NCBI GenBank assembly: GCA_964558645.1
Contig: CAZLEV010000002.1
Location: forward strand, 256,001 to 320,000
DNA length: 64,000 nt
Origin: an uncultured archaeon
GTDB taxonomy: Archaea; Asgardarchaeota; Thorarchaeia; Thorarchaeales; Thorarchaeaceae
Direction: 5' to 3'
This document shows, one piece after another, positions 21,661 through 34,978 of this stretch. The position numbers were made by a program, and so were the translations under genes. The notes under the pieces are model-generated. The model made no database searches. It was not told the DNA's origin and saw only the letters and a list, made by a program, of their open reading frames with translations. The number at the start of each line of letters is the position of its first letter. The first letter of the stretch is position 1.

Positions 21661-21684
21661 AATCCCCAGCGCGGATTGGGGCAG
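21661..21684 (-). pseudogene. Short etfA remnant (CP...ALGI)
   Basis: AATCCCCAGCGC and TTGGGGCAG are identical to etfA 33953-33964 and 33975-33983. Confidence 0.5.
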
Positions 21685-21730
21685 TACCAGCAAGCCTCTA
21701 TGAAAGAGATTCGGGAGAAATAACCCCCGG

Positions 21731-21773
21731 AAGGTGTTCAACCATAAATCTCAGAAGCCGCCAACCTGTTGAG
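21731..21773 (+). repeat. Non-coding 43-nt direct repeat, copy 1
   Basis: 40/43 nt identical to 26288-26330. Confidence 0.85.
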
Positions 21774-21984
21774 ATTCAAACAACAAGGGTCTTCGTGACA
21801 GGGATTAGGCCAGAGAAGCATGGACTATCACAGGCATGATAATCTCAAGATTTCAGATATTGGACTGGGCTGCTGAAATAAGAGCCAAGTGATTTCAATG
21901 GTGTCCACAGGCGAATCCATTCGTCCCCTTCTTGTGCGCTAGTTTATATTGATTTGAATCCTCCACTGTGGGAAGGTTTTTGAT

Positions 21985-31871: not shown

Positions 31872-33167
31872 ATGGTTGCAGTAGACTTGAAAAAACTAAG
31901 AGTACTGGCAGTTGCTACTGCTATATATACTGCTGCTTTTGCAGTCTTGATTCCTGCAACAATTGCACTTCCTGCTCAGAAGATTGGTTTAGTTGTTGAT
32001 GTAGCGGGTACGTCTCTTAATGGAAACACTCTGGAATATGATGATGACATGGCTGGTGAACTCGCATTAGAGATGGAAGCTGAGCCAAATGCAGGAAGTA
32101 GCATTTCTGTCCGATTCAGATGCCCTTCCGCCGAGTTCACTCTCGAATCCATTATGCCGAGAACGCCAATTCGCCGTGAAGAACTGATTGGTCCTGACGG
32201 ATTTCATTCAACGAAACTGGATATCAGTCTATACGAAATTGGCGTCTTCATAGATATAAGATGGTTGAGCAATGGGTCTGCATCGGTCTATGCAGCTCTT
32301 GACATTGATGACTCACAGTACTCTTTAGTTGGCATTGTTCCTCGTATGATGAAACCGGAATGGGTCGACACCCATACATTCTATGTGAATCAACCAGAAG
32401 TATTGGAATCCCTAACACAAGAACAGCTACCTTCAACGTCATTGGTCATAAGACAGACATCACAATCAAAAGACAATCCTGAATCGCATCGGGTGTTGCC
32501 TGCATACTTCCCTCCTTCAGAGCCCCGGGTGTATTGTGTAGTGCACGAGGTGTTTTTTGACGACAACAATAGCGTCCCGGAGCAGGTCGGATCATGGTGC
32601 AAGTCGTACAGCTGGGTTGATTACTCCGTGTACCGAGAAGATGTATCGGAAGCTCAAATCAAGAGTGACCTCCAGTTCTACAATAAGAAGCACTACACCA
32701 TTGACTACAAGTCTAGGATACTGGGGGCCTATGAAATCGACACCCATGGGAATACGGACGTATCCGAGCCCGACCGTCCGTTGCTGACCTTTGACGGAGG
32801 GGAGATTACTCCCTCTGAAGTAGTGAATCTCTGGGGGCCCTATTCGTCAGACTACTATATACGTCCTGATAGTGCTATTGTACTGGCATCTGCCTGCAGA
32901 AGCCTGCGCGACGGGGGTATTTCAGATGTTTCAGAGATGGGTGATGCATTCATCGACTATGGAGCAAGTGCGTATATTGGCTCTACGCTAGACACCCCTG
33001 TTGAGATGGACGAGTGGACCGAGGAATTCTGGTGGTCGCTCACCTATGAAGACGAAACGATAGGTAAGGCCATAGGCGATGCGAATCTCGCCATCGGCTG
33101 GCAGTCTACATCAAGTAAGATTCAAGTGTACCTTCCTCAATACAAATCGCGGAGTATGCCAAACTAA
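31872..33167 (+). CDS. Secreted protein with C-terminal caspase-fold (clan CD) domain
   Basis: Signal/TM segment; IDTHG and VLASAC, followed by [15 protein letters not shown]. Confidence 0.65.
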
Positions 33168-33746
33168 ATGATGCAGTTTCGTATTTCTCTTTCATCCATT
33201 CTCATGTGTACGCTGCTTCTCGCAATGTATCAGTCTGCCACATATCTGACCATGTACAATACAACGTCCACTGATAGCGACTCCCCTCTCCAGCTGTTCG
33301 CGCCGACTACATTGGTCATGCACCACGGGATTGAGACCCCATTTCACATCGTGCTGAGGAGCAACTACAATGAGAACCTAATCGTGTCCATAGATGTCCA
33401 CCAAGATAGGTCGCCCCACGAGGTCGTACCCAGCAGACCTATATCCGACGTGCAATTGGCAAATCACTCGACCGCTGCCGTGATGCTCACCTTCACTTCG
33501 CACCTAGACGAGTTCGCCCTCACAGACCACTACCTCCCATTCAGTGTAAGCACATCCATCTTCCTGATAGCACACAGTCAAGACCCAGTTCCGCAGTCCG
33601 AAAACGTTGTGGTGTCGGTGACAATTCTCGTCTTCAGAATGAGTCCAGTCCTATTGCTATCATTGGGCCTTGGGCTGGCTGTCTTGGCCCTGATTGGGAT
33701 AGGGCGTGTTGTCATCTTCCCTCGCCGCTCGGTAAGCAAAGAGTAG
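33168..33746 (+). CDS. Secreted, TM-anchored partner protein
   Basis: Abuts the previous stop; signal peptide, beta-rich body, C-terminal TM. Confidence 0.7.
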   Translation: MMQFRISLSSILMCTLLLAMYQSATYLTMYNTTSTDSDSPLQLFAPTTLVMHHGIETPFHIVLRSNYNENLIVSIDVHQDRSPHEVVPSRPISDVQLANHSTAAVMLTFTSHLDEFALTDHYLPFSVSTSIFLIAHSQDPVPQSENVVVSVTILVFRMSPVLLLSLGLGLAVLALIGIGRVVIFPRRSVSKE

Positions 33747-33778
33747 AGCCTACCTCCTGAGAGCTGGGGGCGGTGCGG

Positions 33779-34978
33779 CTATCTCTCTGCCTGCACGCGC
33801 TTGATTTCCTCAATAAGGTGGGGTACAACATCAAAGAGGTCGCCAACAATTCCATAGTCTGCGAATTCGAAGATTGGTGCTTCTGGGTCTTTATTGATAG
33901 CGATTATTAGGTCTGCCGAAGAAACTCCAACTTTGTGCTGCACTTGCCCCGAAATCCCCAGCGCAAAATAGAGCTTGGGGCAGATGGTCCGCCCGGACTG
34001 ACCGACCTGCTGGGCTGGTGGGAGCCACCCCGCGTCGACGATGGGTCGCGAACCGCCCACGGCCGCGTCGAGCAAGTCTGCGAGTTTCCTGGGCAGTTCT
34101 AGATTGGCGGGGTCCTTGATACCGCGCCCGCTGCAGACAACCACGTCAGCCTCCTCGACGGATTTCATGCCCTCGCCGACCTGCTTGACCTTTTCGAGTA
34201 CCCTGGTCCGCACCTGGACCGGGCTGATGGTGACCTCCACCTTCTCGATCTCGCCGGTGCGCGAGATATCTGGCTCGCTGGGTTTGAAGACATTCGGTCG
34301 AACCGTGGCCATCTGGGGTCGCGTATACGGACACAGGATCTCGGCCATGATGTTACCGCCGAAGGCTGGACGTGTCTGTACCAGTTGTCGTTCATCATCG
34401 ATATCGAGTCCGGTGCAGTCTGCGGTGAGTCCCAGTTCGAGTCGCGCGGCGACGCGTGGAGCAAGGTCACGTCCGTTGCTCGTGGCACCGAAGAGCACGA
34501 CAGCTGGCTTTCGGGGTGCGATGAGTGACGTCATGGCGATGGCATAGGCATCGGTTGTGTAATCTTCGAATATCGCATTATCAACCACGATGACCTTGTC
34601 GGCGCCCTGATGGATGAGAGAGTCTGCGAGGTCCTCAGTCCCGTGGCCGATAAGAACAGCAACGAGGTCCTCGCCCAGCTTGTCAGCTAGCACTCGACCC
34701 TCAGTGACGAGCTCGAAGGCGACACCTTTGAGCCTGCTATCCGCGGTCTCACAGAAGACCCAGACATTCTGATACTCTGCGAGTTTGTCCTTGTCAACTG
34801 TCTTCCGCTCGATCTTGATGGCGTCGACGGGACAGACCTCTTCGCATGAGCCACAGAGGACGCACTTGTCGAGGTCGAACTTGACCTTGTCGCCGTCCTT
34901 CTCGATAGCAGCGAAGTTACAGACCTTTGGACAGAGCATGCATCCGGTGCAGACATCTTTCTTGTAGATGAGAGTCAT
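33779..34978 (-). CDS. etfA: Electron transfer flavoprotein alpha subunit with N-terminal 2x[4Fe-4S] domain
   Basis: Two CxxCxxCxxxC motifs, [38 protein letters not shown]. Confidence 0.95.
   Translation of the reverse strand: MTLIYKKDVCTGCMLCPKVCNFAAIEKDGDKVKFDLDKCVLCGSCEEVCPVDAIKIERKTVDKDKLAEYQNVWVFCETADSRLKGVAFELVTEGRVLADKLGEDLVAVLIGHGTEDLADSLIHQGADKVIVVDNAIFEDYTTDAYAIAMTSLIAPRKPAVVLFGATSNGRDLAPRVAARLELGLTADCTGLDIDDERQLVQTRPAFGGNIMAEILCPYTRPQMATVRPNVFKPSEPDISRTGEIEKVEVTISPVQVRTRVLEKVKQVGEGMKSVEEADVVVCSGRGIKDPANLELPRKLADLLDAAVGGSRPIVDAGWLPPAQQVGQSGRTICPKLYFALGISGQVQHKVGVSSADLIIAINKDPEAPIFEFADYGIVGDLFDVVPHLIEEIKRVQAER

Follow-up and report, generated by a model that had tools for sequence, protein, structure and literature searches.

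Displaced etfA gene ends and a probable gene-capture site in a Thorarchaeaceae archaeon

Displaced 3' ends of the gene etfA, interleaved with cassettes that mostly encode secreted or membrane proteins, were found downstream of etfA in a window of 64,000 nucleotides (contig CAZLEV010000002.1, forward-strand positions 256,001 to 320,000, of assembly GCA_964558645.1) from an uncultured archaeon of the family Thorarchaeaceae. etfA lies on the minus strand at 33779-34978 as a 399-codon open reading frame (ORF) for a protein with a ferredoxin-type N-terminal domain and ETF domains. The space that separates it from a histone-fold gene (18286-18579, plus strand) extends from 18580 to 33778 and is a gene-capture site, which has very probably been built by serial insertions that each replaced the tail of etfA. 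Replacement of the 3' end and movement of the old ends downstream, as proposed by an initial annotation of the window, are shown by base composition, by discordance between gene body and tail, by empty sites in relatives and by a strain that lacks the newest unit and diverges at codon 345. In what follows, G000 denotes the genome under study, G001 its sister species, other G numbers relatives in the family, and X1 to X3 metagenome runs.

The working tail of etfA is foreign. It had been noted that the current tail looks more A/T-ending in codon use than the gene body, and this is borne out by the G+C content of third codon positions (GC3), which is 0.71 over codons 1-347 and 0.42 over the last 52 codons, below the value of every 52-codon window in the body. 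A like drop is seen in G001 (0.67 in the body, 0.42 in the tail) and is absent in genomes with an empty site. The current tail, T0 (codons 345-399 and the stop codon, 33779-33946, minus strand), also differs from the body (codons 1-344, 33947-34978) in its relationships. Between G000 and G001 the identity of the EtfA proteins is 90.8% over the body and 59.6% over the tail, with the drop in DNA identity falling at etfA nucleotides ~1033-1044, and the body/tail residual of this pair is the most negative of 171 genome pairs (z = -2.9). Where the sites are empty, pairs within a genus have kept their tails (93.7% body and 82.7% tail identity in one pair, 86.5% and 90.4% in another), whereas pairs with islands have not (95.1% and 73.1%; 89.0% and 71.2%).

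From etfA outward, the island comprises cassette C (31854-33746, plus strand), which is the newest unit and is associated with T0, cassette X (28942-31327, plus strand), cassette B (26279-28792, mixed strands) and older material, and a six-frame search with EtfA recovered from it same-strand copies of the C-terminus alone, never of the body. Four 3' fragments had been listed initially, and three of them (31523-31672, 26207-26276 and 25505-25628) stand as displaced tails. T1 (31520-31672, minus strand) retains an open frame and its own stop codon; over 31523-31672, 34 of 50 residues match the current tail without a stop (E 5e-18), and it is 83% identical to the working tail of a relative. T2 (26207-26276, minus strand) is a half-tail with the sequence HPAGMSSSDTMVAVKNPPEAPVF, which represents the 5' half of the tail, its first ~20 codons (codons ~348-370), and ends right after the APIF motif. 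It has 13 of 20 residues in common with T1 and surfaced only when the tail search was repeated with the tails of 20 orthologues as queries, reaching E 0.015 against a relative's tail; synteny backs it, as the G001 counterpart of that cassette end leads into a full displaced tail. T3 (25505-25628, minus strand) is decayed by one in-frame stop and a frameshift, and matches at 16 of 30 residues; the match over 25510-25599 has E 1e-3 against the window's own tail, and T3 reaches 1e-5 against a relative's tail. Every tail has its own hairpin and T-run behind it, that of T1 being a terminator-like hairpin at 31479-31494.

The fourth fragment, at 21661-21684 (minus strand), was rejected as a tail remnant: it resembles etfA codons 333-343, not the tail, and its local alignment score of 28 is matched by the top background scores from other parts of the island, which is chance level. 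In G001 a full displaced tail is present ~80 nt upstream of the spot homologous to 21661-21684 or 21603 and is absent from the window; this tail, near the homologue of window position 21603, forms the end of the G001 array, on another contig. The comparison suggests that a tail was cleanly lost from G000 near 21712-21729, where G001 has its full displaced tail and a similar post-tail region. A terminator-like hairpin also lies at 21712-21729 on the minus strand, directly after the second copy of a 61-nt element (21731-21791).

Assembly error is excluded as a source of the array. The source run contains a single 25-kb contig that reaches across it, and contigs of X2, which stems from an independent study, cover the junction of etfA, T0 and cassette C, the junction of cassette X and T1, and T3 with zero differences, so that the junctions have the same sequence in both assemblies at every base.

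Comparison of the content downstream of etfA among relatives revealed islands that vary and some sites that are empty. In the family, etfA is followed by the histone-fold gene, an ArsR-type regulator and further conserved genes, and the histone-fold gene is the conserved etfA neighbor in relatives with an empty site. There, the distance from the etfA stop to the start of the histone gene is 130-180 bp (G024, G010 and G017); in G005 the histone gene begins ~340 bp past etfA. The gap amounts to 15.2 kb in G000 and to between 1 and more than 19 kb in other relatives. The content and number of the fragments vary between relatives, and the same fragments in conserved order were not seen among them. 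A tail-only search of the family identified at least two tails in 18 of the 66 genomes having any, in seven genera, with up to five tail copies in one genome (five in G063; three in G072).

The position at which these tails begin is confined to codons 345-349 among more than 15 displaced tails from the seven genera. Junctions cluster at CAR-CAY (codons 347-348) with a spread of up to two codons, and the His348 codon has been kept in seven of 15 well-kept displaced tails, two of which have kept Gln347 too. The arrays are also polar: of the seven arrays in which two tails have been displaced, six show stronger decay in the tail farther from etfA. In G001, a homologue of cassette B (28792-26279, 89% nucleotide identity) lies directly behind etfA and is succeeded by a full displaced tail, with the homology between G000 and G001 stopping exactly at the start of the next tail. 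G000 has two extra units, X and C, between etfA and cassette B; because G001 places cassette B at etfA, X and C therefore represent further units in G000.

Variation extends to the level of strains. Run X3, from another study and another habitat, contains a strain that is 96-98% identical to G000 in the flanks at a depth of 60-75, carries cassette X (missing from the G001 array) at ~98% identity and gives zero cover of 31823-33625, that is, of cassette C. Its etfA contig agrees with G000 up to 33947 and departs at 33946, continuing as AVQHIVGCAP, which resembles the beginning of the G001 tail. Together with the lack of cassette C, this break shows that the unit of T0 and C differs between strains and that its left end is at codon 345. 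The depth of X3 is low across 21606-24610, and joints in X3 leading from cassette B to a full tail and on to ~21097 are tentative only, having sides of 30-59 nt and resting on relaxed likeness.

Units also move between genera. Genera g6 and g3, the etfA bodies of which are far more diverged, share a small cassette with an ABM-like ORF at 89-95% identity, and the high identity reaches ~70 nt into the next tail before it falls. Half-tails cut at or near the APIF codons occur as T2 in the window and in G094, G051, G054 and G018, and in G046 a pair of tails is 92% identical in DNA.

The initial annotation had inferred that the process acting at etfA was the same as at the nearby uS19 gene and might be general, and the process is indeed general, as is evident from the arrays across the family and from further targets. 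A displaced tail of the uS19 gene (38661-39080) lies at 55320-55403, and uS19 tails are found within etfA arrays: in G016 a full uS19 tail (L042 3127-3210, etfA orientation) precedes a displaced etfA tail by 50 nt, and in G069 an etfA tail and then three uS19 tails follow one another on one contig (L060, C188 6106-8818, etfA orientation). The genome-wide scan for downstream core-gene tails that had been suggested was run in G000, the 60 terminal codons of each of 3177 ORFs serving as queries, and yielded clear tail-only copies for etfA, uS19 and a DUF35/ChsH2-type OB-fold gene beside a thiolase on contig C14. At this last site, 65 nt (21 codons and a stop) are repeated 3.3 kb apart (L072 5514-5579 and 8926-8990) with 63 of 65 positions identical; the two copies, each with its own hairpin, flank a caspase-family gene and a NosD/PKD gene. 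For nrdD, a directed search added short tails at distances of 5.9 and 10.3 kb behind the gene.

As had been stated at the outset, the cargo is mostly secreted or membrane-bound, with signal-like or transmembrane (TM) segments in 10 of the 11 ORFs between 21096 and 33746. Cassette C holds two genes, for proteins of 437 and 192 amino acids with signal or TM segments and no family match. Cassette X encodes a secreted CHAT/caspase-like protein of 324 amino acids and a prenyltransferase-toroid-like protein of 453 amino acids with a signal and an anchor, and cassette B a NosD/beta-helix/PKD surface protein (27226-28680, minus strand) and a 199-amino-acid membrane protein (26401-27000, plus strand). 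Between T2 and T3 lies a gene for a small 4-TM protein (25633-26052, minus strand) with a weak DUF6114 match. The oldest recognizable cassette (21731-25186, mixed strands) contains a 100-amino-acid ORF (24884-25186, minus strand) and a gene for a 946-amino-acid secreted, anchored protein (21985-24825, plus strand) with weak GIFT/DUF4350 and ThuA-like matches. Cargo in relatives includes NosD proteins, SBBP propellers and membrane proteins without known function, and there were no matches to defense-system or phage families among the cargo proteins.

Cassette B terminates in a 61-nt element (26288-26348) that recurs in the oldest recognizable cassette at 21731-21791; two copies are present in G000, one in G001 and none further. 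It was considered as a general cassette end, a tRNA piece or a gene tail and rejected, with no gene, tRNA or Rfam match, and probably reflects related upstream regions of the two cassettes. The part of the island nearest the histone-fold gene (18580-21730) has no recognizable tail and is common to G001; it includes a 179-amino-acid 4-TM protein, a 117-amino-acid ORF, two DUF3795 ORFs and a DUF1028 protein. Within it, at 20585-20690, contigs of X1, X2 and X3 all break, leaving several loose ends that differ from one another, and depth rises about twofold; a short repeat, or a junction that varies between strains, may lie here in the older part of the island. On the other side, etfB (34982-35770) lies upstream of etfA. 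The etfA body has its GC3 of 0.71 amid ~50% G+C, and the composition of etfA and etfB differs from that of the surroundings. Homologues of EtfA carry the names ETF alpha or FAD-binding protein from Candidatus Thorarchaeota.

Serial replacement probably proceeds as follows. Incoming DNA would bring its own copy of the last ~52 codons of etfA with a terminator, and the carried tail would recombine with its resident counterpart from codon ~347 onward. The new tail would thereby become the working end of the gene with the cargo behind it, and the old end would be pushed downstream as a scar; repeated events have very probably stacked at least four units in the window, the newest nearest etfA. Joining may be guided by the carried tail itself, through homologous or homeologous recombination, either by a single crossover of a circular unit or by two-flank gene conversion between strains, and a break made by an enzyme encoded elsewhere may stimulate it. 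Integrase action, nuclease-triggered repair and plain recombination all predict one product, in which the working copy joins a resident 5' part to an incoming 3' part and the displaced copy an incoming 5' part to a resident 3' part, and the anatomy alone therefore cannot separate the three models. We cautiously incline to tail-guided recombination without a dedicated integrase, because at least four unrelated targets in a genome with a single dispensable recombinase share one build, a tail with a terminator of its own, and because the tails of different targets mix in the same arrays and breakpoints fall inside tails.

Several observations weigh against tail-guided recombination. T0 and T1 are only 69% identical in DNA, and the longest stretch that they have in common, at the APIF codons, measures 14 nt; such a pair is a poor substrate for plain homologous recombination, so that founding events may depend on a break or on a dedicated enzyme. 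From genus to genus the boundary is highly uniform, for which a site-specific enzyme is the simplest explanation. Cassette B is 89% identical between G000 and G001 up to the next tail, yet those tails are unrelated beyond background. Contigs of metagenome-assembled genomes (MAGs) often stop just behind etfA (G004, G003, G001 and G069), so that assembly or binning could have lost autonomous elements that encode an integrase or nuclease. Units in circular or excised form were not observed.

Among the competing accounts, classical site-specific integration with tandem accretion fares best, and we regard it as rather unlikely. Here, integrase-bearing elements specific for the 3' end of etfA would have left units that are decayed, integrase-less remnants or cassettes mobilizable in cis or in trans, like the cis-mobilizable elements (CIMEs) behind fda or tRNA-Lys, or e14 and phage 21 at the end of icd. 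Such a process would account for the uniform boundary at codons 345-349 across genera and for contigs that break right behind etfA, where a mobile element is hard to assemble; target-derived direct repeats bracket the units as attL and attR would, at the third site with 63 of 65 nt identical, and accretion of integrase-less elements is documented (PMC7563491). However, searches with Pfam and PHROGs revealed no integrase, transposase or nuclease among the unit proteins tested from G000 and ~20 other arrays, and no integrase was found at the ~40 etfA loci examined, although absence from MAGs is not proof. G000, which is 93% complete, has one tyrosine recombinase (413 amino acids, with a C-terminal zinc ribbon), encoded on another contig than the etfA array (C1:469554-470795; L071 4555-5796, minus strand); neither an SSV-type integrase nor a serine recombinase was found above cut-off in this genome, and no Xer-type gene was seen in it with PF00589. 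Homologues of the recombinase are present in 21 of 86 family genomes and in seven of the 18 genomes with arrays, and were not found in the other 11, which include G063 with its five tails; in this patchiness the protein looks more like the integrase of a mobile element than a housekeeping Xer. Furthermore, four or more target sequences in one genome would demand several specificities.

Nor was a tail-bearing element recognized among viral contigs, where no Asgard etfA tail was found: two matches were whole etfA genes and two were tail-only matches on giant-virus-like contigs. One of the latter, the IMG/VR giant-virus-type contig L073, carries at 9181-9327 a tail-only EtfA fragment (amino acids 345-393, 57% identical) between patatin and RING-finger genes. 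TFIIB, WW/UCH and protein-kinase genes are found on the same contig, and the 9 kb upstream of the fragment contain no etfA body. On the second giant-virus-type contig, L074, an EtfA tail fragment stands at the very start.

A role for a homing-type nuclease is less probable still. Under this scheme the giant LAGLIDADG protein (43058-46786) of an ATPase-LAGLIDADG-winged helix-turn-helix triad in the uS19 array, or a paralogue of it, would cut etfA at codon ~347, and repair would copy tail and cassette from a donor. The triad is situated 9 kb away in the uS19 array, its paralogues are present in G000, etfA and uS19 tails are mixed in the arrays of G016 and G069, and the WHO elements of yeasts demonstrate that a nuclease can build precisely such an architecture (PMC7282813). 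The expectation that a triad would be found next to etfA in other genomes was nevertheless disappointed: at ~40 loci, the 20 kb downstream of etfA contained neither a triad nor a LAGLIDADG homologue. Nor does presence in the genome track the arrays: LAGLIDADG homologues occur in 12 of the 18 array genomes versus 25 of 48 single-tail genomes, which amounts to no association, and there are none in G063 (five tails) and G072 (three tails). No common motif is evident at the etfA and uS19 junctions, and a nuclease encoded outside the unit has nothing to gain from moving it. LAGLIDADG homologues were also observed 3-14 kb upstream of etfBA, on the uS19 side, in G096 (C48:23916-25769), G078 (C23:18-761), G062 (C132:1-792) and G065 (C331:22967-23290). 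Finally, it is hardly conceivable that there was no insertion and that the fragments are decaying tandem etfA paralogues or an assembly artifact, which would explain their bare presence and nothing more, given that the last ~52 codons recur without the body, that fragment content and number differ among relatives of which several have empty sites, and that two independent assemblies are identical across the junctions.

Replacement of gene ends is known from other settings. In Escherichia coli, prophage e14 and phage 21 provide icd with a substitute for its last ~50 codons and leave the old end as a pseudo-fragment on the far side. Each is a single integrase-encoding prophage, whereas the etfA locus is an array of integrase-less cassettes. 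The closest published parallel in form is that of the WHO elements at the aldolase gene FBA1 of Torulaspora and Lachancea yeasts (Coughlan et al., 2020, PMC7282813). As at etfA, a housekeeping gene receives a new 3' part with each insertion, old ends accumulate downstream with the newest unit closest, and a sharp break separates 5' and 3' parts with discordant histories; the downstream fragment serves as homology for repair, to which the etfA array may be likened (PMC7282813). WHO units encode their own endonuclease, whereas etfA units carry only genes for surface and membrane proteins; the host of the etfA array, moreover, is an archaeon without meiosis in which there are several targets per genome and the tails of one target occur in the array of another.

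Free-standing homing-endonuclease ORFs in fungal mitochondria (for example at atp6 and cob in Endoconidiophora) likewise have a partial C-terminal duplicate of the target downstream of the insert (PMC6279837). These inserts are LAGLIDADG or GIY-YIG ORFs, in contrast to the etfA arrays, in whose units no nuclease ORF was found and which contain up to four tails along with cargo genes. In streptococci, integrative conjugative elements, integrative mobilizable elements and CIMEs accrete at the 3' end of fda or tRNA-Lys, where non-autonomous att-bounded units are stacked much as at etfA (PMC7563491). The streptococcal stacks regularly hold an integrase-bearing partner, however, and none was found at etfA; the etfA repeat is a diverged coding tail of 150 nt, whereas the streptococcal att is a short identical core. 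The defining enzymes of the WHO, mitochondrial homing-endonuclease and CIME families were looked for in the etfA units and not found. Integrons, including those reported from archaea (PMC9668308), resemble the etfA locus in that a fixed site gathers small cassettes of accessory genes and new ones enter beside the anchor. Unlike integrons, the etfA site has no adjacent IntI gene, the sole tyrosine recombinase lying on another contig; its repeats are gene tails, not attC hairpins, and its cassettes face either way and seem to carry their own signals. A repeat search detected no shared inverted repeat at the unit ends and there was no Rfam match, a dedicated attC model not having been run. In the literature searched, no published description of such tail replacement in Asgard archaea was found.

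The findings describe how an Asgard archaeon gains and swaps genes for surface and membrane proteins without recognizable integrases, at sites sheltered by essential or central genes, in a role that is integron-like and with a build that is different. They explain mosaic evolution at the end of a core metabolic gene, and the arrays affect the use of etfA or uS19 as phylogenetic markers. Should the catalyst prove to be a trans-acting homing nuclease or host recombination alone, there would be a testable tie to the WHO/HO story of yeasts. A broader proposal, which we put forward tentatively and with some doubt, is that Thorarchaeota, and perhaps Asgard archaea generally, possess a recombinase-free form of gene capture addressed by homology, in which the label is a housekeeping tail with its terminator, host recombination inserts labeled DNA at the end of the gene and leaves the gene unharmed, and units with several labels move among etfA, uS19, nrdD and the thiolase partner. 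If true, surface-protein genes would constitute a genome-wide exchangeable store. Copies of the tails can serve as baits for mobile DNA and for strain-level gene flow in uncultured Asgard populations, the mobile elements of which are poorly known.

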